Positions 39,506 to 53,232 of a stretch of DNA of 64,000 nt are shown piece by piece (within the stretch, counting starts at the first letter, position 1; every line of letters starts with the position of its first letter). Below the pieces are notes generated by a model, which was not told the DNA's origin, made no database searches, and saw only the letters and a program-made list of their open reading frames with translations. The position numbers and the translations under genes were made by a program. The stretch is from Thermodesulfobacteriota bacterium (GTDB lineage: Bacteria; Desulfobacterota_D; UBA1144; Nemesobacterales; Mycalebacteriaceae): contig OZ242184.1 of the NCBI GenBank assembly GCA_965205855.1, positions 886,570 through 950,569 of the forward strand, in the 5' to 3' direction.

Positions 39506-42115
39506 CTAAATTGACTCAACAACACCGGCGGACATTTCAATCGCTTCGGCAACCCCTTCGGGACGGTCTCCGCCCGCCTGCGCGAGCACGGGCTTTCCGC
39601 CTCCTCTGCCGCCAATCAGCGGGGCAATCTCCTTGATGATTTTCCCCGCGTGAAACCTGTCTGAAATATCCTTTGTAACCCCGACAAGGATAAATGCCTT
39701 TCCCTCGCGCACGCCGCCAAGCACCGCGACCCCGCCTTTAATTTTCGCGCGTATCCCGTCCCACAATTCCCTCAACTCTTCGGGGCCGCAGTCCGGAACT
39801 TCGCGTGAAAGAAACCGCGCTCCGTTAATTTCCTTCATGCCGGATATCATCTCACCGGCGCCTTTCATAAGAGCGCTTTTTCTGCGCACACCAGACTCCT
39901 TTTCGAGCTCCGTGTTACGCTCAAGCAGTTTTCCGATTTTTTCCGCAACCGCTCCCGGAGCAACTCCGAGCATCTTTGCGGCGCGCGCAAGAGTCCTTTC
40001 GTTTTCCAGAGCGCGTTTGTACGCCGCCTCATGGCAAACCGCCTCTATTCTTCTCACTCCCGCGCTTGAAGCGGATTGCGAAACTATGCTGAACATTCCC
40101 GCCTCCGCGGAGTTGGCAATATGAGTTCCGCCGCACAGCTCAACGCTGTATCCGCCGATTGAAACCACCCTGACCCTGTCGCCGTATTTCTCCTCAAAAA
40201 TCGCCATTGCCCCCCCTTTCAGCGCCTCTTCGTAAGAAACATCCGCTCTTGTAACAACCTCGTCCGCGCGTCTTATTTTCTCATTCACCATATCTTCAAT
40301 CCCCTTAATGTCTTCGTGGCTCACGGGCGAGTGGTGTGTGAAGTCAAACCGCAATCTGTCCGGGGCGACAAGCGAGCCCGCCTGTGAAACATGGGTTCCG
40401 AGTTTGTCCCTCAAAACGGAGTGCAGTATGTGAGTCGCGGTGTGGTGCGCGCACGCGGCGCGTCTGCAGCTTTTGTCAACTGAAAGGCGCACGGTGTCTC
40501 CGGGGCGAACCGCGCCTTTTTCAATCACGGCGCGGTGGCGGATAATACCCGCGATGGGGCGGGTTGTGTCAATCACTTTCGCAAAAAACCCGTCCCCCTC
40601 AATGGTTCCCGTGTCTCCCGCCTGTCCTCCGGACTGTGCGTAAAAAGGCGTTGAATCGGTAACAATGTCCGCTGTGATGTCAGAATTTGCGAAAAAAACA
40701 ACCTTGCCCGTCCCTTCGGTGGCTTCGTAGCCGGTAAAAGCCGATGAGAAACCCGCGGAAACAAGTTCCGACAAACCCCCGCCGCCGTCTTCGGTGCCTT
40801 TCCACGACCCTTTTGACTGCTCTTTCTGTTTTGCCATCTCTTTGTCAAAACCTTCCCTGTCAACCCCGATATTTTTTTCCCTGAGCACATCCTCGGTCAA
40901 TTCAAGCGGAAAACCGTACGTGTCGTAAAGTTTGAAAGCCACATCGCCGGAAAGTTTTTCACCGCTTGAAAGTTTTTTCACTTCGCTCTCAAGAATCTCA
41001 AGCCCTCTGTCTGCGGTTTCAAGAAAACCCTCCTCTTCTTTCATCACGATTTGAGCCGCAAACTCGGTTTTTTCCACAAGTTCGGGATAGGTTCCGGCAA
41101 GTGTGCCGGAGACCGCGCCGAGGATTTTGAAAAGAAACGGCTCATTTGTGCCGAGGGTTTTCGCATGGCGCGCGGCTCTTCTGATAATTCTTCTAAGAAC
41201 ATAGCCCCTACCTTCGTTTGAGGGAAAAATCCCGTCCGCGATAAGAAACACAGCGGCGCGCGCATGGTCTGCGATAACGCGCATGCCGCTGTCAATCCTG
41301 CCTCCCTTTCCATCTGTGTATTTTATTTGCGAAAGTTCTTCAATCCGCCCGATTACGGGGCGAATCAGGTCGGTTTCGTAGTTTCCGGGCGCTCCCTGTA
41401 TGACCGCCGTTATCCTTTCAAGTCCCATCCCCGTGTCTATGTTCGGAAGAGGAAGGGGTTTTGTCTCGCCGGATTCATTCTGTTCATACTGCATAAAAAC
41501 AAGGTTCCACAACTCAAGGTAGCGGTCGCAGTCGCAGCCCGGCGCGCACTCCGGTTTACCGCATCCGGTTTTTTCGCCCTGGTCTATGAGAATTTCCGAA
41601 CACGGCCCGCACGGCCCCACATCTCCCATAGTCCAGAAGTTGCTTTCGTCTCCCATGCGCAGAATGTGGGATTGCTCAAGCCCCGCTTCTTTGCGCCAGA
41701 TTTCAAACGCTTCGTCATCGTCCTTGTAGACGGTAACCCAGAGTTTATTTTTGGGAAGTCGGAAAACATTTGTCATCAAATCCCATGCGAAATGCACGGC
41801 GTCCTGTTTGAAATAGTCGCCGAATGAAAAATTGCCGAGCATTTCAAAAAATGTGTGATGCCGTGCCGTGTATCCGACATTGTCCAGATCGTTATGTTTT
41901 CCGCCCGCTCTCAAGCATTTCTGCGACGAGACCGCGCGTTTGCTGGCGGGAGGCTGTTCGAGTCCGAGAAAGATGTTTTTGAACGGAACCATCCCCGAAT
42001 TGGTAAAAAGAAGAGTCGGGTCTTGCACGGGGATAACGGGTGCGCTTCTTACACGCTTGTGGCCGTTTTTTTCAAAGTAAGAAAGAAAAGTTTCCCTTAT
42101 TTCGTTTCCGGTCAT
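39506..42115 (-). CDS. alaS: alanine--tRNA ligase
   Basis: 869 aa. Class II core (FTNSGM, KHNDLDNVG), editing-domain HxxxH/CxxxH motifs (HTATHIL, CGGTH) and a DHHA1 C-terminus. Confidence 0.95.
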   Translation of the reverse strand: MTGNEIRETFLSYFEKNGHKRVRSAPVIPVQDPTLLFTNSGMVPFKNIFLGLEQPPASKRAVSSQKCLRAGGKHNDLDNVGYTARHHTFFEMLGNFSFGDYFKQDAVHFAWDLMTNVFRLPKNKLWVTVYKDDDEAFEIWRKEAGLEQSHILRMGDESNFWTMGDVGPCGPCSEILIDQGEKTGCGKPECAPGCDCDRYLELWNLVFMQYEQNESGETKPLPLPNIDTGMGLERITAVIQGAPGNYETDLIRPVIGRIEELSQIKYTDGKGGRIDSGMRVIADHARAAVFLIADGIFPSNEGRGYVLRRIIRRAARHAKTLGTNEPFLFKILGAVSGTLAGTYPELVEKTEFAAQIVMKEEEGFLETADRGLEILESEVKKLSSGEKLSGDVAFKLYDTYGFPLELTEDVLREKNIGVDREGFDKEMAKQKEQSKGSWKGTEDGGGGLSELVSAGFSSAFTGYEATEGTGKVVFFANSDITADIVTDSTPFYAQSGGQAGDTGTIEGDGFFAKVIDTTRPIAGIIRHRAVIEKGAVRPGDTVRLSVDKSCRRAACAHHTATHILHSVLRDKLGTHVSQAGSLVAPDRLRFDFTHHSPVSHEDIKGIEDMVNEKIRRADEVVTRADVSYEEALKGGAMAIFEEKYGDRVRVVSIGGYSVELCGGTHIANSAEAGMFSIVSQSASSAGVRRIEAVCHEAAYKRALENERTLARAAKMLGVAPGAVAEKIGKLLERNTELEKESGVRRKSALMKGAGEMISGMKEINGARFLSREVPDCGPEELRELWDGIRAKIKGGVAVLGGVREGKAFILVGVTKDISDRFHAGKIIKEIAPLIGGRGGGKPVLAQAGGDRPEGVAEAIEMSAGVVESI

Positions 42116-42179
42116 TTAATTGCCGTCCGTGGCGCGACAGAGTGAAGTGGGAAAAGACGCACGCGGGGAATTGAGAAAA

Positions 42180-42434
42180 TCACTCTGCGGGAGAAACGAC
42201 CGAGACGGTGTTTCTTTTTCCTTTGCGGAATTTCACAACTCCGTCTGCAAGAGCAAAAAGCGTCCAGTCCCGTCCGGTTCCGACATTGTCTCCGGCGTGA
42301 AAAGAAGACCCTCTCTGGCGGATGATGATGTTTCCCGCTTTGACGACTTCTCCGCCGAATTTTTTAACGCCGAGCCGTTTGCCCGCCGAATCTCTTCCGT
42401 TTCTTGAACTGCCGCCGCCTTTTTTTGTGGACAT
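42180..42434 (-). CDS. rpmA: 50S ribosomal protein L27
   Basis: 84 aa. [20 protein letters not shown] is a canonical L27 N-terminus. Confidence 0.95.
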
Positions 42435-42446
42435 TCTCTGTCTCTC

Positions 42447-42764
42447 CTACCCTTTTATACCGGTTATGCGAACCGATGTGTATCTCTGCCGGTGTCCGGC
42501 TTTAAGTCTGTATTTTTTGCGTCTTTTGAATTTAAAAACGGTAATTTTAGGTCCTTTCTTCTGAGAGACGATTTCGCCTTTAACTTCCGCTCCGTCAACA
42601 ACGGGAGTACCCACGCGCGCCTCACCCTCTCCGTCCGAAACCATAAGCACATCGGGAAATCCGATCGTGTCTCCGGGGCTACCCTCGATTTTTTCTATGT
42701 CAAGAACATCTCCGGATTTGACCAAGTACTGTCTGTTTCCTGTTCTTATTACTGCCTGCTGCAT
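42447..42764 (-). CDS. rplU: 50S ribosomal protein L21
   Basis: 105 aa. MQQAVIRTGNRQYLV...KFKRRKKY...GHRQ pattern. Confidence 0.95.
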   Translation of the reverse strand: MQQAVIRTGNRQYLVKSGDVLDIEKIEGSPGDTIGFPDVLMVSDGEGEARVGTPVVDGAEVKGEIVSQKKGPKITVFKFKRRKKYRLKAGHRQRYTSVRITGIKG

Positions 42765-42788
42765 AAAGATTGCTCCGCTCTTGGAAGG

Positions 42789-43547
42789 TCAATTATGCCA
42801 CAAAAAGGGATGGAGTGTCAAACTATACGGCGACCGCCTGATAGTCGGGGAGTTCACCCATTGTTTTCCCTCAAGAGCGCGTCCCGTCTTCTTTTTGTTC
42901 ACACCGCCCCATTGTTTGAAGAAAAACGGAACCCCGCTTTCAACGCAGTTGTCCCTGATTTCCGTAACCCATTCCTCTTTCATCGGTCTTGCGCCGGGGC
43001 CGGACTCTCCACCGACAATGACCCAGTCTATGCCTGACAAATTGAGGTTTGGAAACGGGGCAAGCAACGGTTCAAGAGAAAGAAACTTCACGCAAGCATC
43101 GGTCTGTTTTAAAACTTCTGTACGGGAAAGATATTTCTCGGACTCTACGCTTGTTCCCATCCAGATGTTGGAAGTCCAGTGCAGGTGTTTGTTCGCCTTC
43201 ACAACCCTTTCCGGTCTTTTTGTGAGAACCTGAAAAGTGTGTTGAGATGCTTCGTTCATAACTTCAAAAACGGACATAATGAATTTTGCGGGAACATCCT
43301 TGTGGAACAAATCGCTCATTGAATTGACAAAAACTATTTTCGGTTTTTTCCATTTAAGCGGGTCTTTCAAAGTGTGTTCATGAGTGGTGAGTTTGAAACC
43401 GTTTCTGTATTTCTCCATCCCTTGAGCGTGAAGCCGCTTTGCCATCCGCTCGGCGTAGCAGTATTTGCAACCGTGGCTGATTTTTGAACAACCGGTAATG
43501 GGGTTCCATGTTGTGTGAGTCCATCCTATTTTGGAGGGTTGGGTCAT
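42789..43547 (-). CDS. DUF5131 / phage Gp37-Gp68 family protein (Cys-cluster, radical-SAM-like)
   Basis: 252 aa. N-terminal [27 protein letters not shown] signature as I recall for Pfam PF07505. Its start overlaps the res stop (TAATG). Confidence 0.75.
42792..42821 (-). promoter_or_regulatory. candidate rplU-rpmA promoter embedded in the last codons of the upstream DUF5131 gene
   Basis: On the minus strand, TTGACA-18 nt-CATAAT. The -10 hexamer spans the final His-Asn codons (CAT AAT), directly before the TGA stop of the DUF5131 ORF. A GGAG Shine-Dalgarno and the rplU ATG follow within about 30 nt. Confidence 0.45.
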
Positions 43548-46090
43548 TACTGTTTGTTGATAACACCGTTTATATCGTCCCGCCAGCTGTCTTCAAACAT
43601 CATCCTGAAAGTAGCGGGCGTCTTATTGATGGCCATTTCGCCTCTGTCAAGGGCGATCCTGTATGTTTTTTCAAGCGTGTCGAGCAATTTTTTCTTGTAA
43701 CTCGTATCTTCGCTGCCTTTCAGGTGGATGCCCTTTGTTTCCAGAATTAGCAGTTTTCCGTTATCTTTTCGGCAGGCCACAAAATCGGGATACACGCGCT
43801 GGCGTCGCCAGCCTTGCAGATAGTACGCTTGTCTTGCAGCTATTCTGTGCCACCAGTAGATGGCGTTGCTCTTATCCAGATAAAGCGCAAAATCCCGCTC
43901 CAGACCGTTAAAACTACTTTCATAAACAGGTTCAAAAAGGTTTTGCTGTATAGGTCTGCCATGTTCGCTCTGTAATGATCTTTCTTGACTGGAAACAAAA
44001 ACCTCGAACGACTTGCTCAATTCGTAGTCCAGTCGCTGGTCGGTCTCAAGGTGAAACCGAATCACATTCCGCCCAACCTTTTCCCGAAACACCGCTTCGG
44101 CCTCGTCGTCTATGGCCTTGTTCACGCGGCGGCTCAATTCTTCGGAAAGGTAAATTCGGTTATTCAACAATTTGCTTTCATCGTGTTTCCTGTTTTTATG
44201 TGTTTGAATAAACCCCTCCGCCATGCGCGCCGCCTGCCACGGATTGGGCACCTTGTCCACAAGCCGCCGAACAAAATAATCCACGCTCAGCCGCTTTTCG
44301 CTGTCAGGGATTTGTTCCGAAGCCTTAACCTGCCCTTGAATGTCCACCGTGGTTTTGATCTCCTGAGTGATGTCTCTATCATCCAGATTCACCGCTGCGC
44401 CCGCGTCAATGGTGTCCCAATCAATCGCGCTTAATATATCGCGGTCGTAATCAATGGGGCGCCAGGTGCGCCCCGCTTTGTGTAACACCTGCGGGAGAAA
44501 AATTTTCAATGGCCGGTATTTACCACGACGTTTGACGGTGGTCGGTTTCGGTGCATCGCCCTCGCCATGCCCGTGAACAAAATCGCCAAGCCCGGTCAGC
44601 CCTTCATTCTCCAGGCCGGCCTTCACGCCTTTGATCGCCTTGCCTACGACCTGATTATAGCAATAGATATAACACTGGTTCAGCGCATCGCCTTGTGCGA
44701 TTCTGCGTGCATGGGGTTGCCGCATCACCCGACCGACCATTTGCGTGATGGCGGTGGTTGCGGTGGTGTTATCCAGCAAGGCAAGCAGATATGCAAACGA
44801 GCAATCCCAGCCTTCTTTCAGCGCGTCTTTGGTGATAATCCAGCGCACCTCGCTTGTCTCGCTCAACAAATCCTCACCCGCAAGTTCCTTGCGTTCCGAT
44901 GATTGAATCCTGATGTGATTCTCCGGCACAGCAAGATTTTGTATCAGGTATTCGCGCGCATCCTCCGAATGAATTTTTCCTTGCCCTCTTTGTTTTGCGC
45001 CCGTTCTTTCCACCCTGACCAAAGCGATGGGTCGGATATGGCGGTTTTCCTGTTCCTGTAATTTTTGCGCCGCACTTTCAAGCTCATCCAGTTTTTCCTG
45101 TGTTTTGGCAAGCGTGTGTTCCCAGTCGGAATTGCTGAAACTGTGAATCTCTATCGGCAGTTTGATCATCTCCTCGTCCTGGAGGTCGCGGCCCGATGTG
45201 TTGACCAGGATATTGCTGATGCCGATTTTCGGCGTGGCGGACAGTTCAAGCACAAAACGGGGGTTGAGCCGGTTGACGGATTTGACAAACTCCTGGTTGT
45301 TTTGATTATTCGGTCCATATGCTTTATGCGCTTCGTCCAAAATCACCGTGGGACGAATCAGTTTCAGCACATTGATCAGGCTTTGCTTAACCCAGTCGCC
45401 GGGTGCATTTTTCTCCAGGTCGGGATGGTGTTCCGAAAGCGTTGCATTGGCCGCCGCGTCATCCTGCTCGGGAAAAAACGACATATACCCGCTGCTGTCG
45501 CGGAATATTTTGAGAAACTCCCTGTTCTTTTGCCGGTTGGCGGAGGGTAGCATCAGCAGCATAATGCAAAGATAGTTTTCGGTATCCTGTCGGGTAAAGC
45601 GGTCGGTTTTTTGCAACAATTTGACCCTGCCGCCAGACATATGTTCGAGCATCTGCCGGTAGGTATGTTCGCGGGTGTGGAACGCCTGGCGGGTCTGCTC
45701 GTAGATCGCCCGGGTCGGCACAATCCACAACACAAAGCCGGTATCCCGCTTGATCCGCTCAAGCGTGGCCACGCCCAACAGCGTCTTGCCGCCGCCGGTC
45801 GGCACCTTCAGGCAAACATGCGGGATGGGTTCGCCGGATGCCGCAGTGCGGGAAATGTAGCCGGGAACTGCCATGTCACCGTCTTGGGAAATGCCGGGGA
45901 GGATATTTTGATCTTTCAGCGCCTTCCAAGCTAAGAGGGGATAGTTTTGCAGTTCTTCAGGAATATCAATCCCCGACTCTTCAAGAGCTTTGCCCGCCTT
46001 TTCACTAGTCAGCCGCGCTTCCTTGAGCGCGTCCAGCCAGCGGTCTAACTGTTCAAGAGCTTGTTGCTGATAGTTTTTCAGGGAGAGCAT
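43547..46090 (-). CDS. res: Type III restriction enzyme Res subunit (SF2 helicase plus C-terminal nuclease)
   Basis: Helicase motif I VPTGGGKT, motif [10 protein letters not shown], motif [12 protein letters not shown], and a C-terminal PD-ExK-like YPDF...LILETKG. The ATG at 46090 ([13 protein letters not shown]) is preferred because the tracked start at 46225 overlaps orf185. Confidence 0.85.
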
Positions 46091-46091
46091 A

Positions 46092-46649
46092 TCACGGATT
46101 TTTTGAGTCAGTACTGTCTGAATTATTTGGCAAATTGATGATTTCAACAGGCACATTCCTTTTACCAACTGCAAGACCGACAGCGTAGTTACGGATAATA
46201 GTTTGATCCATTTCCATATCCGCATAGCCTTGTGGATAGTACGAACCCCTTAGAATTTCCATCTGTTCTACCTTAAAATCTAGCACCTTGGCCATTGAGC
46301 TAAGCATCTCCGTGAGCAATTCCATTTGCTCCTTGCCGAGTCGTTCATAGTGCGAACGAGAATCATTTTCTTCGTTAGGCCTCTTAGCATGCGTTTCACC
46401 ATAATGCTTGCGGAGTGCTGCCCATTTTTCTATAACTTCTTTATGCTTAACAAATTCTATCTCAACCAGATTAATGGCTCCGACATAATCAGGTGATAAA
46501 CGCGCATTTCGTGTACGCATTAACGTCTTGAATATATCCATTTTTCGCGCCTTTTGTTCGCGCCATCTGTCAAGAAGACCGTTAACCCAGACAGCTGCGC
46601 AAGGACCGATTAAGATGGCTGCAATGGTGATGATAGAATATGAATTCAT
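46092..46649 (-). CDS. hypothetical membrane-anchored protein (185 aa) between mod and res
   Basis: N-terminal TM helix SIITIAAILIGPCAAVWV, then a charged helical region. Visibly AT-richer than the flanking mod and res sequence. Start lies 2 nt after the mod stop, and its stop lies 1 nt before the res ATG. Confidence 0.6.
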   Translation of the reverse strand: MNSYSIITIAAILIGPCAAVWVNGLLDRWREQKARKMDIFKTLMRTRNARLSPDYVGAINLVEIEFVKHKEVIEKWAALRKHYGETHAKRPNEENDSRSHYERLGKEQMELLTEMLSSMAKVLDFKVEQMEILRGSYYPQGYADMEMDQTIIRNYAVGLAVGKRNVPVEIINLPNNSDSTDSKNP

Positions 46650-46651
46650 GT

Positions 46652-48115
46652 TTATCTTATACCCTCATATGGTAATTGGGCAAAAGTTATCCCCATCTCG
46701 GTTAATGCTTTTTGTCCCATGAATTTGTGAGTGGCGAACACCACCGCGGTTTTCTTTTTTGCCTTGGCCTGTTTGGCGATGCGTTCGGCGCGGGTGCTGT
46801 TCAAAGCGGAATCCGCACTGCGCAGAAAATCAAGGTTCGGCTCGTAGATCAGGTAAAACATTTTGTCACCTGCTTCATAAAATAAACCGTCTTTGCCACG
46901 CCTTGTTTTCGGGTTGAGTTTATGCGGCGATTGTCCGCTTGCGGTATAGATCAGATGGCGGGCAAAGGTTTCATAGCCCGGCAGGTTCCTGCCGGTGAGC
47001 ATTTTTTCAATGCTGATTTCATCGCCCAGTGTGCAATAGGCAAAACTGCCGCCCAGTCCGTTTTTTAGGTTCTCATCCTTTGCTTTTGGTATGCCCTTTA
47101 TCACACGGCGAACGCGCTCGGCGGTGATTTTGTCGGCGTAGTCTTCGCATTCCACCAAGATAAATTTGCGGTTGCCGCCGTCTTCCTTGTTCAGCGCAAG
47201 CACGGCGTGGGCAGTGGTGCCGGAACCGGCGAAGGAGTCGAGGATAATGGCGTTTTTTGTCGTTGCCAGTTGTAAAATCTTTTTCACAAGGGAAATTGGT
47301 TTGGGGTTTTGGAACTGATTAGAACCAAACACCGTCCTCAACTCGATTGTGCCGTTGGTTGTTGTACCTACATCATCCCACCAAGTGCTAGGCGTTAACC
47401 CCCTTCGGCGTGCCTCTGACAAAAAACGTTTGCGCTGAGGTCTGGAACTATTTCTCTTTCCGAATACGATTCTATTGTCTGCAAGAAGCTCCTCAAATTT
47501 GTTCAAATCGTTTTTCCAGCAATTACCTTCAGTGGGGTAAAATATTTCTTTTGTTTTAGGGTTTCTTATCGGATACATCTGATTAGGTCGAACCCCACCA
47601 GCCTCAAATGGATCCGCCTTCCATGGGCCTCTCGGATCATTATCAGGATTTTTGAATCCTTCTAAAATGGCAGGAAGTTTGAAATCTTTTCTAATGGTTT
47701 TTAATACATTCAGTTGTTTAGCATAAGCTATATTATGAGTGTGTGATATTGATACTAATGCAGGATTTGTAATTGATTTTGTGCTATGCCACACAAAATC
47801 TGCAACAAAATTCTCCTCCCCAAAAATCTCATCCATGACCATCCGCAGGCGGTGCTGTTCATTGTCGTCGATGGAAATAAAAATTACGCCATCTTCGGCC
47901 AGCAATTCTCTTAACAACTGCAATCTTGGCCACATCATGCACAGCCATTTGTCGTGCCGCTCCAGGTCTTCGCCATCCACCGGACTTTTGCCTTTCAGCC
48001 ACGCCTTCATCATCGGGCTGTTGACATTGTCGTTATAGACCCATTTCTCATTGCCGGTGTTGTAGGGCGGGTCGATGTAAATGCAGTTGACGCGGCTGGC
48101 ATAGCGCGGCAGCAA
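46652..48115 (-). CDS. mod: Type III-like DNA methyltransferase Mod (beta-class N6/N4), main frame downstream of a frameshift
   Basis: Motif IV IDPPYNTG precedes motif I DSFAGSGTT. The frame stays open upstream of the tracked TTG start up to the stop at 48203..48205 (..SFSEKWGGNPSLDDNLIIHGDNLHALKA). The N-terminal 37 codons lie in another frame (next feature). Confidence 0.85.
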   Translation of the reverse strand: MLPRYASRVNCIYIDPPYNTGNEKWVYNDNVNSPMMKAWLKGKSPVDGEDLERHDKWLCMMWPRLQLLRELLAEDGVIFISIDDNEQHRLRMVMDEIFGEENFVADFVWHSTKSITNPALVSISHTHNIAYAKQLNVLKTIRKDFKLPAILEGFKNPDNDPRGPWKADPFEAGGVRPNQMYPIRNPKTKEIFYPTEGNCWKNDLNKFEELLADNRIVFGKRNSSRPQRKRFLSEARRRGLTPSTWWDDVGTTTNGTIELRTVFGSNQFQNPKPISLVKKILQLATTKNAIILDSFAGSGTTAHAVLALNKEDGGNRKFILVECEDYADKITAERVRRVIKGIPKAKDENLKNGLGGSFAYCTLGDEISIEKMLTGRNLPGYETFARHLIYTASGQSPHKLNPKTRRGKDGLFYEAGDKMFYLIYEPNLDFLRSADSALNSTRAERIAKQAKAKKKTAVVFATHKFMGQKALTEMGITFAQLPYEGIR

Positions 48116-48150
48116 CGCCTTGAGCGCGTGCAGATTGTCGCCGTGGATAA

Positions 48151-48291
48151 TCAGATTGTCATCAAGGGAAGGGTTACCCCCCCATTTTTCGCTGAAAGAG
48201 ATTTTTTAGTGTCTATCTCAAGTGTCCTGGACGGAACAGTCAGGTGGTGCGCATAAATGAGTTGCTTCCCTTTGAAATCAATTGTCGGCAT
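48151..48291 (-). pseudogene. mod: 5' segment of mod in a different frame, separated from the main frame at a G7 tract
   Basis: The ATG at 48291 opens MPTIDFKGKQLIYAHHLTVPSRTLEIDTKKSLSAKN followed by the G7 run (plus-strand C7 at 48177..48183). As written, the frame ends at the TGA at 48151. One extra G joins it to the Mod main frame. Confidence 0.7.
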
Positions 48292-48448
48292 TGAAAACCC
48301 CGTAAATCAGTTTGATATTGGCTTTGAAGATACCCGATTTACTCCCCCAACCTAAACCCCTCAACCTCCCGATGCACCGCCCCTTCCCGTCTCAATTCAC
48401 TCTCCATCAAACAAACTCTTTCAGAAGCAAAACCAAGTTCAAACTGCG
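48285..48448 (-). repeat. direct repeat copy A: thpR(ligT) 3'-end fragment, downstream spacer and first 7 nt of mod
   Basis: Identical base-for-base, by manual alignment, to 51106..51269. Its inner end is truncated by the IS1380-family remnant. Confidence 0.9.
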
Positions 48449-48768
48449 CCCGCGGTGACATGGAGAACCGGATCAAGGATCAGCAGTTGGATTTGTTTGC
48501 GGATCGCACCTCTTGTCACCGCTGGTGGCCCAACCAGTGCCGGCAGTTGCTGTCAGGGTTGGCTTACACGTTGATTGAGGGATTGCGGCGCCTTGCACTA
48601 CAGGGCACCGAACTGGCCAAAGCCAGTCCTCACAGGATCAGGCTGACACTGCTTAAAATCGGTGCCGTGATCATCCGCAACACGCGCCGCATCCGCCTAC
48701 TGATGAGCAGTGCTTATCCCCATCAGGCGTTGTTCCGCACGGCAGCCTATCGGCTCAACTCCCCATAA
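48449..48768 (+). mobile_element. IS1380-family transposase C-terminal remnant (pseudogene)
   Basis: Encodes only ..ARGDMENRIKDQQLDLFADRTSCHRWWPNQCRQLLSGLAYTL..., which resembles the conserved C-terminal block of IS1380 DDE transposases. About 340 N-terminal residues are absent. Confidence 0.65.
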
Positions 48769-48959: not shown

Positions 48960-50099
48960 TTATTTTCGGATGAGAAACAGAAATTCTTTATTCGGATCGC
49001 TGGATTCCCGCAACCACTCATTTGTCCATTTCATGGCGGCCATCACATTTTTTTTATACTCAATTTTTGCGCTATCCACAATTTCTCCGTTACGCGTTAT
49101 CACCTCGTTTAATTCCTCCGCGGTTGCTCGTCCACCGGAACTGTAAGAGAGCAAGATCCATCGGCAAGGAGTTTCCTTCAGCAAACGCTCTATGGCTTCC
49201 ACCACAACCAATCGTCCTGATTTGCTTCTACGAAATTCCTCGAACACTGAAGTCGCCACTTTATCGGATGTGTCTTTTCTGCGGAGGGACTTGCCAAATA
49301 GCACGGGATGATCATTTTTACATATGGTCGTCCACAAATGATAATATGAAGCGTACCGAACCCTTGAAGGTGGCATTTTTTCATTGTTTGACCCATACGG
49401 AGGATCAAAATAAGCAAGATCGGCGTCCGCTTCGGGAAGTACCTTAAAAACATCACCACACAGCACCGTGTTTTCGATTTCATTTTTCCACAACCGTGGC
49501 ACTTTCAATTGTAAATTTTTGAATGAACGCGGCGACCAATCTTTTAAATAAGAAACAAAATGACCAAGAGTACTGTCTATCTCATTCAACCCTAAAATCA
49601 GGCTTGTCAATGCCACACTTTTGGAAACGTCATCCAGCATCAAGGCATCGATCTCTCTCCTGATTGCATCAAGTTTTCTTGTATTTTTTTTCTGCCAAGG
49701 CTTTTTGGTTCCATCCTTCTGAATAGCATTATGGCAAGTTCCAGAGCGAACATCACCACCGTAATTCTCAGTAAACCATCCGTCTTCCGGAGGAAGCGAA
49801 TTTAAATGATCAATAAGAGGTTGGTATATTTTCGGGTTTTTTAAGTTTTTCAAATAGCACGTGGCAAAAATTCTTGACCATTCGGAAATATCATTTGATA
49901 CCACGCGATATCCTGCTTGTGCAAAAGATTGACTTACTCTGGTGGAGCCTGAAAAACCGTCAAAAATGCTTTTTGCTCCGGTCTGTTTTGACAGATTAAA
50001 AATATGTGGAAGCAGTTTCAGTTTTGAGCCTGCGTAATTGATGCCTTCGGTTTTTGGAACATCAATCCAATCACGAAAAATTTGAACTTGCCCTTGCAT
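48960..50099 (-). CDS. adenine-specific DNA methyltransferase, alpha-class (Dam / D12-like)
   Basis: 379 aa. NYAGSKLKLL, motif I FDGFSGS, motif IV FDPPYG, and a C-terminus ending in EFLFLIRK typical of D12-class enzymes. Confidence 0.8.
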   Translation of the reverse strand: MQGQVQIFRDWIDVPKTEGINYAGSKLKLLPHIFNLSKQTGAKSIFDGFSGSTRVSQSFAQAGYRVVSNDISEWSRIFATCYLKNLKNPKIYQPLIDHLNSLPPEDGWFTENYGGDVRSGTCHNAIQKDGTKKPWQKKNTRKLDAIRREIDALMLDDVSKSVALTSLILGLNEIDSTLGHFVSYLKDWSPRSFKNLQLKVPRLWKNEIENTVLCGDVFKVLPEADADLAYFDPPYGSNNEKMPPSRVRYASYYHLWTTICKNDHPVLFGKSLRRKDTSDKVATSVFEEFRRSKSGRLVVVEAIERLLKETPCRWILLSYSSGGRATAEELNEVITRNGEIVDSAKIEYKKNVMAAMKWTNEWLRESSDPNKEFLFLIRK

Positions 50100-50776
50100 T
50101 ATGTAACTTTAAAGCGGGAAGCCTGCTTGAGTCTAACAATATCATCTTTCACTTTTGCAAGAGCCTCATTCTGGCCGAAATCAGAAGAAACAAGCGCGTG
50201 AGAAAATAGTTGGACCAAGATAGGATTGTGAGAATAATCAACCCATCCATTGGTTATGCTATCAAAATAGTTTAAACCACTTTTTGTATGAGTCCAAAGC
50301 CCTCGCTGGAGGGCATTGGCGGTTGCGCTTCCATAACGCACCTCGCAAATATAAGAATCGCTTGCATCGTAGAAACGATATACTGGGTGCTTTCTACCTT
50401 TCTTTTTTGTTTCTTTTACTATTTTCACCGTTTCAGTTTCAGCGCGGTGGTAATCGAAGACAAGAATATTACACTGTCGATTTTTTTCGTCATAAATTAA
50501 TGGCAAAACATTTACATTGTAAAAATCCGAGAAAGCGGGGTCGGCAAGCACTCGTTGTACATTTTTCTTGCCCACTATTTCATCCCCCTCTTGTGCCAAT
50601 CTCGGAAACATTTTGAAATTCTTGTCGGTTGAAAGTTGAAGGGGACCATCACCATACGCTTTGATGCTAACAGGAAATTCAGCTTCGGTTACTTCATTTA
50701 TTATTTTGATGTCTTCTTCCCGAGATTTGGCTCTGTATAAATCTTTGCCAACATGGATCGAGCGAAAATCATACAT
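50099..50776 (-). CDS. hypothetical protein, candidate Type II restriction endonuclease partner of the Dam-like methylase
   Basis: 225 aa. Its stop overlaps the methylase start. Possible PD-ExK-like element (FYDASDSYICEVRYG). No family recognised. Confidence 0.4.
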   Translation of the reverse strand: MYDFRSIHVGKDLYRAKSREEDIKIINEVTEAEFPVSIKAYGDGPLQLSTDKNFKMFPRLAQEGDEIVGKKNVQRVLADPAFSDFYNVNVLPLIYDEKNRQCNILVFDYHRAETETVKIVKETKKKGRKHPVYRFYDASDSYICEVRYGSATANALQRGLWTHTKSGLNYFDSITNGWVDYSHNPILVQLFSHALVSSDFGQNEALAKVKDDIVRLKQASRFKVT

Positions 50777-50777
50777 A

Positions 50778-50987
50778 CTACTGGTTGATAAATTCGGCTA
50801 TGGCGATTTCTGCCAAATCTCCATGTGTTTTATTTCCAATGAGGCGCATGGTGAAAATGTTGCTCAATGTCAAGATTATTAAATCCGGGCGTTTACTCGC
50901 AAGAAGCTTCAATCTCGAGATGAAATCTTTATATGGATCATTTTTCATGTTTTTCGTTTGATGCCTCTGTTTTGGTATTTTTATCAA
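50778..50987 (-). CDS. hypothetical 69-aa ORF, separate small gene or detached N-terminal part of the 225-aa ORF
   Basis: It ends at a TAG one nt before the ATG of the next ORF (CAG TAG T ATG). It is in a different frame from that ORF. Confidence 0.3.
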   Translation of the reverse strand: MIKIPKQRHQTKNMKNDPYKDFISRLKLLASKRPDLIILTLSNIFTMRLIGNKTHGDLAEIAIAEFINQ

Positions 50988-51105: not shown

Positions 51106-51335
51106 TCGGCATTGAAAACCCCGTAAATCAGTTTGATATTGGCTTTGAAGATACCCGATTTACTCCCCCAACCTAAACCCCTCAACCTCCCGATGCACCG
51201 CCCCTTCCCGTCTCAATTCACTCTCCATCAAACAAACTCTTTCAGAAGCAAAACCAAGTTCAAACTGCGGCAATTCGGGTAGCTTCATCCTTTTTTTTAT
51301 CCACCCTATCGTAACGTGCGACATAAAATCCCGTT
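51106..51335 (-). repeat. direct repeat copy B: longer thpR(ligT) 3'-end fragment, spacer and first 7 nt of mod (ATGCCGA)
   Basis: 51106..51269 is identical to copy A. 51129..51335 aligns without gaps to the intact thpR 3' end (52052..52258) with about 18 mismatches by manual count. It keeps an open frame (..SHVTIGWIKKRMKLPELPQFELGFASERVCLMESELRREGAVHREVEGFRLGE*). Confidence 0.85.
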
Positions 51336-51461: not shown

Positions 51462-51872
51462 TTAGTGCTCGCCCTCTTGATTAATTTGTTTCCACAAACT
51501 GCCGATAGCAAGTAGTGCTGGAATAATAAGTAGCACCACTACAATTGGCACACTTGATTTAATTACCTCTACATTTAATGCATATACGGTAATAACATCG
51601 GATATGTCCGTCAATAATCTGACAATTAATATCGCTAAAAGTGCTTTATGAGACTTAAGGAATAAAGCAACTATTATCCCTATAACTACCATTACATTTC
51701 TTGTAATGTAAAGTTGTGTAACATAATTCAATTCGGAAACCTCTGGTATGAAACCACTTGGGTTCATGGCCGTACCAGCTGAGAAGAAAAGCACTAAAGA
51801 TATTTGTATTAGAACAATGACCCATACCCAAATAGGTAAGAATCCATTGGTTTGACCATTTTTGTAATTCAT
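51462..51872 (-). CDS. hypothetical four-TM membrane protein (136 aa), AT-rich cargo
   Basis: Four hydrophobic helices. Markedly AT-rich by eye. Lies between repeat copy B and the IS1595 remnant. Confidence 0.5.
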   Translation of the reverse strand: MNYKNGQTNGFLPIWVWVIVLIQISLVLFFSAGTAMNPSGFIPEVSELNYVTQLYITRNVMVVIGIIVALFLKSHKALLAILIVRLLTDISDVITVYALNVEVIKSSVPIVVVLLIIPALLAIGSLWKQINQEGEH

Positions 51873-51905: not shown

Positions 51906-52052
51906 TTAAACTAAGCAGAGTTTCAAGATATTTTCCGGCATCGGCGGCGTTTTGAGCGCTGCATAAGCAAGTCTCGGTATTAACTCGCACAAATCAAAGC
52001 GACGATTGAAACGATACTGAAATTCTGACAAATAACGCTGTGCGTATTTTTC
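51906..52052 (-). mobile_element. IS1595-family transposase C-terminal remnant (pseudogene)
   Basis: The minus strand encodes EKYAQRYLSEFQYRFNRRFDLCELIPRLAYAALKTPPMPENILKLCLV*. The YL.EF.YRFNRR block is the conserved C-terminal signature of ISXO2-like/IS1595 transposases. It abuts repeat copy C directly. Confidence 0.65.
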
Positions 52053-52258
52053 AGTTTGATATTGGCTTTGAAAATACCCGATTTACTCCCCCAACCTAAA
52101 ACCCTCAACCTCCCGATGCACCGCCCCTTCTCGTCTCAATTCACTCTCCATCAAACAAACCCTGTCAGAAACAAACTCAAGTTTAAACTGCGGCAATTCG
52201 GGCAGTTTTATCCTTTTTCTTATCCGCCCTATCGTAATGTGTGGTATAAAATCCCGTT
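52052..52258 (-). repeat. direct repeat copy C: 3' end of the intact thpR gene plus 31 nt downstream
   Basis: Homologous to copy B over 207 nt (about 91% identity by manual count) and to copy A over its shorter extent. Confidence 0.85.
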
Positions 52259-52664
52259 TCTCCGGCTCAAAACCGATTGTCTCAAGTTTTGAGTCAATCT
52301 CGTCCTTGAGACTGAAAAACGCGTCCCCGGATTCCGCAATCACCGCAAGCGTCTGCGTATAACGGCGGAGTATAAGCGCCTCAACCCCGTCCGTTGTGAT
52401 GTCGAGCGGCACAAACCGCTTGCAACAACTTTCAATAACCCCGCACAGTTCGGGAATCAATTCGCGGCGCGTCTCTCCGAGAAACCTTAAAGTAATATGG
52501 AATTTTTCAGACAGCTCCCAACGCACATGGCGGAGCGAGCGTATTGCGGCGGAACGGGATTTTATCACCCTTTTTGCTTTTTCGGGAACTTCAAGAGAAA
52601 TAAAAAGCCGGACGGTAGCGCTGTCAACTCTCAAGCTCAACATTCCAGTATGAGGCATCAACAA
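52083..52664 (-). CDS. thpR: RNA 2',3'-cyclic phosphodiesterase ThpR (LigT, 2H phosphoesterase)
   Basis: Two H-x-T-x motifs (HITLRFLG and HITIGR). The true start may be the ATG at 52643, which overlaps the HNH gene stop by 20 nt. Confidence 0.8.
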   Translation of the reverse strand: MLMPHTGMLSLRVDSATVRLFISLEVPEKAKRVIKSRSAAIRSLRHVRWELSEKFHITLRFLGETRRELIPELCGVIESCCKRFVPLDITTDGVEALILRRYTQTLAVIAESGDAFFSLKDEIDSKLETIGFEPEKRDFIPHITIGRIRKRIKLPELPQFKLEFVSDRVCLMESELRREGAVHREVEGFRLGE

Positions 52665-53232
52665 AACTTACAAACGGCTCCCATTCTTTGTAGCGGATTG
52701 GGTGCGCGTAAATGTTTGCAAACGGTCCCCACTGCGGTTCGGAGGGAATTGTGAGCAATTTCATCCTTGCCTGTTCGGGAGTTCTACCGCCTTTTCTGCG
52801 GTTGCACGAGCCGCAGGAGCAGACAACATTGTCCCATCTGCTTTCTCCGCCGTGCGCGCGCGGAATAACATGGTCTATCGTAAGCTCGGTTTTGGAAAAA
52901 TGCTTTCCGCAGTATTGGCATTTACCGCTGTCTCTGCGGAATATGTTGAAGCGCGTAAATCTCGGACGCTTTCTGTGAAATCCGCTGTAACGGAGCAGGA
53001 TTATAACCCTCGGCGCTTTGATGATCCTTGTAACGGTTCTCACATAGTCGCCACGCCCTCCGGCGGCAGAGGCGGCGGAAACCTCCGCCCAACTCTCAAA
53101 ATCAAAAGTCTCGTAGGTTTTTGTTACGGCTTTCGCCTCGCCGCAATAGAGCATCACAAATGCCCGTCGCAAATTGGTAACGGAAACGGGCATATAGTTT
53201 TTGTTCAAAACCAGAACCGGCGAACTCAACAT
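52624..53232 (-). CDS. HNH endonuclease-domain protein
   Basis: 202 aa. CQYCG...DHVIPRAHGGESRWDNVVCSCGSCNRRKG is an HNH/zinc-finger core. Confidence 0.8.
   Translation of the reverse strand: MLSSPVLVLNKNYMPVSVTNLRRAFVMLYCGEAKAVTKTYETFDFESWAEVSAASAAGGRGDYVRTVTRIIKAPRVIILLRYSGFHRKRPRFTRFNIFRRDSGKCQYCGKHFSKTELTIDHVIPRAHGGESRWDNVVCSCGSCNRRKGGRTPEQARMKLLTIPSEPQWGPFANIYAHPIRYKEWEPFVSFVDASYWNVELES

Follow-up and report, generated by a model that had tools for sequence, protein, structure and literature searches.

Restriction-modification (R-M) systems of Type III, such as EcoP15I and EcoP1I, are made up of a beta-class methyltransferase (Mod) and a restriction subunit (Res) which combines a helicase with a PD-(D/E)xK nuclease, and mod lies upstream of res in a single operon. 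Switching of Type III mod genes by poly-G tracts is known, and 17.4% of mod genes carry repeats (PMC5909438). The locus described here occupies positions 42789-48291 of a 64,000-nucleotide window (the whole stretch of DNA analyzed, from contig OZ242184.1 of a Thermodesulfobacteriota bacterium). It shares these features with EcoP15I and EcoP1I but differs from them in that a gene of the DUF6680 family splits mod from res, and in that mod is out of frame as sequenced although Res depends on Mod. A fourth gene, of the DUF5131 family, follows res. We read the locus as a phase-variable Type III cassette with a co-inherited DUF6680 gene, lying next to a DUF5131 gene which is the orphaned and slightly damaged half of a TcmP-DUF5131 pair, and we place the probability of this reading at roughly 0.7.

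The Type III core and the gene between mod and res

Direct reading of the sequence gave four open reading frames (ORFs) on the minus strand, mod (46652..48291), orf185 (46092..46649), res (43547..46090) and the DUF5131 gene (42789..43547). The stop of mod (TAA, 46654-46652) is followed by two nucleotides (ac) and the orf185 ATG at 46649, the stop of orf185 (TGA, 46094-46092) is followed by one nucleotide (t) and the res ATG at 46090, and the res stop and DUF5131 start overlap as TAATG (43549-43545). The program-listed res ORF begins at an upstream ATG (46225); homology favors the ATG at 46090. In a promoter and terminator scan none of the three junctions showed a minus-strand terminator-like site, which makes co-transcription plausible, and an Rfam scan returned tRNAs only. 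The first-pass annotation, which was made from this DNA alone, had described the same four minus-strand genes with junctions TAAacATG, TGAtATG and TAATG. It had also described a beta-class Mod (DPPY before FxGxG), a Res with helicase motifs and a C-terminal PD-ExK-like nuclease, and a small N-terminally anchored membrane protein between them, and these descriptions held up when set against the motifs, profile matches, hydropathy and predicted helices given below.

Mod, a beta-class N6-adenine methyltransferase of the Type III kind, matched the Pfam family N6_N4_Mtase (E 5e-32) and, over its full length, the PADLOC model MTase_III (E 9e-146). Its motifs stand in beta-class order, with IYIDPPYNTGNE N-terminal of LDSFAGSGTT, so that DPPY comes ahead of FAGSG. 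Res matched the PADLOC model REase_III (PDLC03653, E 6e-213, residues 3-841) as well as Pfam ResIII, and its sequence contains the motifs of a superfamily 2 (SF2) helicase-like ATPase and a C-terminal PDF...ETKG, as in PD-(D/E)xK nucleases. Relatives of Res in Proteus (43% identity), Chryseobacterium (37%) and Alicyclobacillus (37%) are encoded in canonical loci with mod and res adjacent or overlapping, and neither DUF6680 nor DUF5131 was found in these loci. Judged by motifs and profiles, the core of the locus is a Type III R-M cassette of the ordinary biochemical kind. By analogy with EcoP15I-type enzymes, Mod would methylate N6-adenine on one strand of an asymmetric site and supply DNA recognition for Res, and Res would cut unmethylated DNA using ATP and its C-terminal PD-(D/E)xK nuclease.

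The product of orf185 belongs to Pfam family DUF6680 (PF20385; E 6e-47; 159.9 bits versus a gathering cut-off of 23.2; profile positions 1-168 of 170) and so is not an orphan. The 19 residues from 4 to 22 have a mean Kyte-Doolittle hydropathy of 2.04, and an AlphaFold2 model with a predicted local distance difference test score (pLDDT) of 89.4 places helices at residues 3-45, 53-65, 70-84, 97-122 and 140-161. The model points to a membrane helix at the N-terminus and, after it, a bundle of four helices that is predicted to be cytoplasmic; enzyme-like features are lacking. An exhaustive search placed the family at 1847 clusters at 50% identity, all of them stand-alone proteins of about 180-220 amino acids. 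The window protein itself had no exact match on record, and a literature search on DUF6680 found no papers.

The order mod-DUF6680-res, with junctions of 0-4 nucleotides, recurs in three other loci (L001, also sampled as L087; L002, also sampled as L086; and L092). Identity to the Mod, DUF6680 and Res proteins of the window was 64, 81 and 91% for L001, 48, 66 and 38% for L002, and 54, 41 and 37% for L092. A decayed copy is present in a Ca. Poriferihabitaceae metagenome-assembled genome (MAG; L089, 7019-8530), where mod has a central deletion, DUF6680 is frameshifted and res is gone. All mod-DUF6680 loci come from sponge-associated or Nitrospirales MAGs. The four DUF6680 proteins embedded in Type III loci grouped as one clade when 73 members of the family were placed in a neighbor-joining tree, and the ratio of nonsynonymous to synonymous substitution rates (dN/dS) of DUF6680 was 0.26-0.6, below 1. 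The first-pass annotation had made linkage of orf185 to mod and res across homologous loci a measure of its proposal, and this linkage is conserved, but only within the small clade of L001, L002, L092 and the decayed L089. Given the recurrence of the tight junctions, the monophyly of the embedded DUF6680 proteins and the canonical Res relatives without DUF6680, the mod-DUF6680-res triplet is a real and heritable variant architecture. The pattern across these loci is that of a DUF6680 gene captured a single time and thereafter passed on together with mod and res, within a small clade of cassettes that move among sponge-associated bacteria.

The wider genomic contexts of DUF6680 were sampled at 79 loci, found with the single pattern A[LI]NL[VI]E[IV]EF from an 18-sequence alignment and therefore biased to one part of the family; a 74-sequence alignment contained no block sufficiently conserved for a scan pattern. 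A Mod gene was located upstream of DUF6680 in 4 of the 79 (the L001 and L002 loci, L092 and L089), with res next in 3. At 35 loci (L098-L161, e.g. L101 7657-8001) the gene directly upstream encodes a beta-rich partner of about 114 amino acids with the motif G-x-Y-x-x-Y-Y-T-G ... T-P-x-G-P-V-N and without a Pfam match, and a search of the window for a homologue of this partner found none. Other DUF6680 genes follow housekeeping genes (cysS, class II ribonucleotide reductase, leuA-like). The idea that DUF6680 is a general defense-island gene was not supported, as only a few of 122 neighbor proteins matched PADLOC models. A distant homologue (26% identity, E 4e-5) is encoded by the P2-like Yersinia phage vB_YenM_31.17 (L166, 4890-5552), with the replication gene gpA on one side of it and the portal gene gpQ on the other, and more homologues were seen in phages of Ralstonia and Brevundimonas and on Vibrio plasmids. 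The gpA-portal region of P2-like phages often holds accessory defense genes. We take this location as a hint of a defense link for DUF6680 and as nothing firmer.

With respect to the role of DUF6680 within the cassette, our best guess is that it could be an accessory without catalytic activity whose synthesis keeps pace with that of Mod. Conceivably it anchors the complex to the inner membrane or regulates it there, or else it may act in exclusion independently. It is also possible, if doubtful, that DUF6680 is a pure passenger, a mobile or selfish gene inserted between mod and res which has no role in restriction and persists only since its excision would break the translational coupling of res. 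About 75 of the 79 sampled loci have no R-M context and few of the neighbors match defense models, both of which suit a passenger, as does a dN/dS of 0.6 against the closest relative, above the 0.21 of Res in the same pair. A Type III-like operon elsewhere (L004, 2008-9041) moreover hosts an unrelated inserted pair, so that the gap between mod and res evidently tolerates insertions. A passenger would nevertheless not be expected to stay intact and tightly coupled where identity has fallen as low as 41% for DUF6680 and 37% for Res, nor to form a single clade among its embedded copies, and the sole broken copy, in L089, lies where mod and res are also destroyed. We continue to read DUF6680 as a co-inherited part of the cassette.

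The poly-G tract in mod

Translation of mod from the ATG at 48291 meets a stop after 46 codons, and the remainder of the gene is a 487-amino-acid ORF in another frame from a TTG at 48115. The frameshift lies at a run of seven G residues on the coding strand (C7 on the plus strand; 48177-48183, mod codons 37-39), which is a candidate phase-variation repeat. A tract of G8 or G5 would restore an intact Mod of 546 amino acids, and the G8 version is colinear with the Mod proteins of L002 and L092. The closest homologue, L001, from a Ca. Spongiihabitans MAG (OZ242212.1), has a tract of 24 G residues at the same position of its mod gene (L001 8414-8437), followed by (TAA)3. This mod is likewise out of frame, with G23 or G26 as the in-frame lengths. 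No poly-G tract was present at the homologous position in the more distant L002, L092 and L089. The criterion for mononucleotide tracts in the survey of mod genes was at least 9 nucleotides (PMC5909438); the G7 of the window is below this criterion and the G24 of L001 is far above it.

The G24 at the same position in the closest homologue suggests phase variation, and we conclude from these tracts that the cassette lineage appears to have a hypermutable mod, of which the window copy would be in an OFF phase or locked off. Expression of mod would probably be switched on and off by slipped-strand mispairing, with OFF as the sequenced state. Since Res depends on Mod, and since translation of the downstream genes is coupled to that of mod, the frameshift would be expected to exert polarity on these genes, and the whole operon is probably silent or weak in the OFF state.

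A different account, which we consider unlikely, is that the operon is a decaying pseudogene cluster, in which an inactivating mutation that became fixed, or else an error of assembly, produced the frameshift in mod without any connection to phase variation. The assemblies are long-read MAGs, in which homopolymer errors occur, the tract is under the 9-nucleotide threshold, the endonuclease gene of the adjacent Type II R-M system is also split (pieces of 69 and 225 amino acids) and the related L089 locus is plainly decayed. Against this account stands the 24-nucleotide G tract at the identical codon position in the closest homologue, for which it is difficult to find an explanation other than a hypermutable repeat. 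Outside the frameshift mod is intact, as are the three remaining ORFs, and a C7 run at 40210, inside an intact alaS, is read in frame, showing that runs of seven are not always miscalled in this assembly. A switching mod remains the reading we prefer.

DUF5131 and the ligT-rplU interval

The DUF5131 (Gp37/Gp68) protein of the window matched PF07505 (E 4e-98) and the PADLOC models PDC-M41B (E 1.7e-117) and PDC-M30B (E ~1e-115). Its cysteines C20, C27 and C30 do not vary across 42 sequences, and the C-x6-C-x2-C cluster that the first-pass annotation had reported in a Gp37/Gp68-type protein was confirmed by the family match and by the sequence itself. The same annotation had held that the family has no established biochemical function. 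This stands insofar as nothing functional has been published, a literature search for DUF5131, TcmP, PDC-M30/M41 and COG4422 returning passing mentions only and no functional data, but DUF5131 is a recognized radical S-adenosylmethionine (SAM) subgroup (PMC9477430). The window protein has both the partial TIM-barrel fold and the N-terminal cysteine triad for a [4Fe-4S] cluster by which radical SAM proteins are told, and it belongs among the radical SAM enzymes, with a resemblance to spore photoproduct lyase. A sequence search of the window protein against the PDB gave nothing significant.

In relatives the usual partner of DUF5131 is TcmP. Among the long upstream neighbors of DUF5131, 24 of 32 matched TIGR04474 (TcmP), and also the PADLOC models PDC-M30A and PDC-M41A. 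We sampled 74 DUF5131 loci, 61 of which were assessable for TcmP and 13 not, and built a TcmP hidden Markov model (HMM) from 58 partner proteins. TcmP was found in 51 of the 61 assessable loci, directly adjacent in 48 and nearby in 3, and 10 loci were without it despite adequate flanks. Run against the 64-kb window translated in all six frames, the same HMM detected no TcmP at E <= 10. TcmP (e.g. L006 514-1725; loci L006-L085) has no Pfam family, and its profile matches the N6-methyladenosine (m6A) rRNA methyltransferase RlmJ (E 4e-6) in an alignment spanning the SAM-binding and DP motifs. On this match TcmP is probably a methyltransferase-fold protein, and the TcmP-DUF5131 pair looks like a methyltransferase fold together with a DNA-type radical SAM enzyme. 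A Burkholderia plantarii plasmid presents another arrangement (L169, 2094-4969), in which DUF5131 overlaps by 4 nucleotides the stop of a gene for a 636-amino-acid DNA cytosine methyltransferase, the two lying within the transfer region of a conjugative plasmid.

Among the relatives closest to the window DUF5131, those at 72-77% identity have an intact TcmP (L170, L173, L174). At 82-84% identity L004 has a frameshifted TcmP, L172 keeps no more than a C-terminal remnant of it and L005 has none; the window has none either. The neighbors of the closest DUF5131 genes comprise Type III-like R-M, Type II R-M with AbiL, PD-Lambda-4 (L171), Type I R-M and Dcm/Vsr. A rule by which DUF5131 genes without TcmP consistently lie beside methyltransferases was considered and rejected as general, since the 20 neighbors scanned with Pfam were varied and none was a methyltransferase.

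The window DUF5131 gene is under strong purifying selection (dN/dS 0.08-0.11) and is damaged at its 3' end. It lacks the conserved C-terminal W-D-E-x-P end of the family, the last ~8 native codons being replaced by a read-through tail of 17 residues with pLDDT below 50 in the predicted structure. Within this tail on the minus strand lies a strong, near-consensus sigma-70-like promoter, presumably that of rplU-rpmA (42792..42821; TTGACA, 18 nucleotides, TG-CATAAT; 11 of 12 matches, extended -10).

Comparison at the DNA level separates the DUF5131 gene from the cassette. Homology to L001 covers 43582-47257 (92%) and 47807-48279, and thus the cassette but not DUF5131, and it stops about 35 nucleotides ahead of the res stop, at 43582. 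Homology to L005 covers the DUF5131 gene (42836-43547) and the rplU-rpmA region (41650-42823); between these two blocks L005 has 2 kb with AbiLi and AbiLii, a segment missing from the window. At the window DUF5131, homology to L004 and L005 extends over 42836/42866-43547 only, its starting point being precisely the ATG of DUF5131. A possible relic of TcmP was looked for in the final 12 res codons, which had no recognizable similarity to TcmP C-termini; Res tails are variable anyway. Read from these boundaries, the res-DUF5131 junction is one seam of a hotspot between ligT and rplU. The DNA homology indicates that DUF5131 was already resident in this hotspot, upstream of rplU. TcmP has been lost, and the Type III cassette came to lie directly upstream of DUF5131. 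A deletion of ~2 kb, judged against L005, fused the 3' end of DUF5131 to the rplU promoter.

The first-pass annotation had proposed that all four genes form a composite defense system, and had made conserved linkage of DUF5131 or orf185 to mod and res in homologous loci the measure of the idea. In such a composite DUF5131 would add a radical SAM step of DNA modification, repair or sensing, and DUF6680 would act as an effector or regulator. There is something to recommend it: the junctions of all four genes are tight or overlapping with no terminator between them, DUF5131 is normally paired with the methyltransferase-fold, RlmJ-matching TcmP and on the Burkholderia plasmid with a Dcm-like methyltransferase, the closest TcmP-less DUF5131 genes adjoin R-M methyltransferases, and purifying selection acts on DUF5131 without TcmP. 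None of the three homologous mod-DUF6680-res loci, however, has a DUF5131 gene after res, the cassette homology ends ahead of it, and its 3' end was damaged by deletion. In the 74 DUF5131 loci a Mod-like gene was immediately adjacent only in L030 and within the flanks in L022 and L085, and DUF6680 was present in none. The neighbors of TcmP-less DUF5131 are varied and often not methyltransferases, and the pairings with PD-Lambda-4 in L171 and AbiL in L005 fit general residence in defense islands. The proposed linkage thus survives narrowly for DUF6680 and fails for DUF5131, the four genes do not co-occur in the homologous loci, and by its own measure of conserved linkage the composite hypothesis, to which we give very little credence, is largely refuted. 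The TAATG overlap would give co-expression of res and DUF5131, and we see no evidence of joint function. Equally improbable is a version in which DUF5131 uses Mod and Res as substitute partner, for example adding or removing a second DNA mark at Mod sites or close to them, with DUF6680 as a membrane-anchoring third subunit. The claim of a new four-gene defense system should not be carried forward.

Several observations weigh against our own reading of a switching cassette beside an orphaned DUF5131 gene. Only five loci have DUF6680 within a Type III system, and all are from related sampling projects. The Res proteins of the triplet loci are at least as distant from one another as from canonical Res, so that the history may involve recombination and not simple co-descent. 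Within one cassette DUF6680 shows the faster evolution, at 0.6 versus 0.21 for Res, as would fit a passenger under relaxed constraint. The G7 tract, being shorter than 9 nucleotides, could reflect a sequencing error or a fixed inactivating mutation. At the other end of the operon, the stop of res and the start of DUF5131 overlap by 1 nucleotide, which is neat for a junction formed by chance. The dN/dS of DUF5131 is ~0.1 in four lineages without an intact TcmP; DUF5131 may work without TcmP given such purifying selection, and it may have a link to neighboring methyltransferases.

Upstream of the cassette, three direct repeats of ~208 nucleotides mark further seams of the interval, each made up of the 3' end of a ligT-like gene and the mod 5' leader. 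Copy A (48307-48514, minus strand) forms the upstream cassette boundary. Copy B (51128-51335) is nearly identical to copy A and retains the first 7 nucleotides of mod (ATGCCGA), and copy C (52051-52258) is the real 3' end of ligT; copies B and C separate two further cassettes. The three repeats argue for serial accretion of cassettes, and for the ligT-rplU interval as a hotspot of defense cassettes. Between the repeats are a membrane ORF, a low-GC Type II R-M system and a transposase fragment. The membrane ORF, of 136 residues (51462-51872, minus strand), is multi-pass, has no family match and lies alone between copies B and C. The Type II system (48960-50987) has a guanine-plus-cytosine content of ~0.40 and an intact D12-class methyltransferase gene (48960-50099). 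Its restriction endonuclease is split into ORFs of 69 (50778-50987) and 225 (50099-50776) amino acids, which align to successive stretches of a single PADLOC REase_II model; it is probably a pseudogene, with the methyltransferase left behind as an orphan. The transposase fragment (48460-48768, plus strand) comprises 100 C-terminal residues of a DDE_Tnp_1_4 protein (E 8e-34) and overlaps copy A by ~55 nucleotides (48460-48514), running from there in the direction of the Type II cassette. Beyond copy C, an HNH endonuclease gene (52624-53232, minus strand) overlaps the start of the ligT-like gene.

Comparison with described systems

Should DUF6680 indeed modulate the Type III enzyme, an otherwise strictly two-protein class would have its first described accessory subunit, and a family of ~1800 clusters with no known function would gain its first testable role. 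Among Type III-like loci the operon of L004 resembles this one in having extra genes between mod and res on the same strand. The inserted genes there are a Peptidase_M78/ImmA-like gene and a DUF4411 gene, and differ from DUF6680 in resembling a toxin-antitoxin pair, and Mod and Res belong to another subfamily. The L004 operon also adjoins a frameshifted TcmP and an intact DUF5131.

With the phase-variable Type III mod genes of phasevarions, such as the G[n] tract of Helicobacter pylori modH, the window mod shares a G tract in the 5' part of the ORF whose length sets the frame. It differs in that the tract is only G7 and is known from sequence alone, and in that the hosts are sponge-associated or environmental MAGs, not host-adapted pathogens. 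The G7 here and the G24 of its relative suggest that phase-variable methyltransferases, mostly studied in host-adapted pathogens, also occur in sponge symbionts.

Spore photoproduct lyase, a radical SAM DNA repair enzyme (PDB 4fhc), is the described enzyme that DUF5131 resembles, at an identity of only 12%, with a cluster motif of CX3CX2C versus CX6CX2C in DUF5131, and with DUF5131 much the shorter at ~240 amino acids. The TcmP-DUF5131 pair can be described as a radical SAM enzyme similar to spore photoproduct lyase together with a methyltransferase fold similar to RlmJ, and these fold assignments make a function in nucleic-acid modification a concrete hypothesis. To this pair, known from the TIGR04474 partner and as the PADLOC candidates PDC-M30/PDC-M41, the window gene is tied by its PDC-M41B/PDC-M30B match, its three-cysteine motif and its defense-island context. 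It is set apart from the pair in that TcmP is missing, the C-terminus is replaced and the coupled upstream gene is res.

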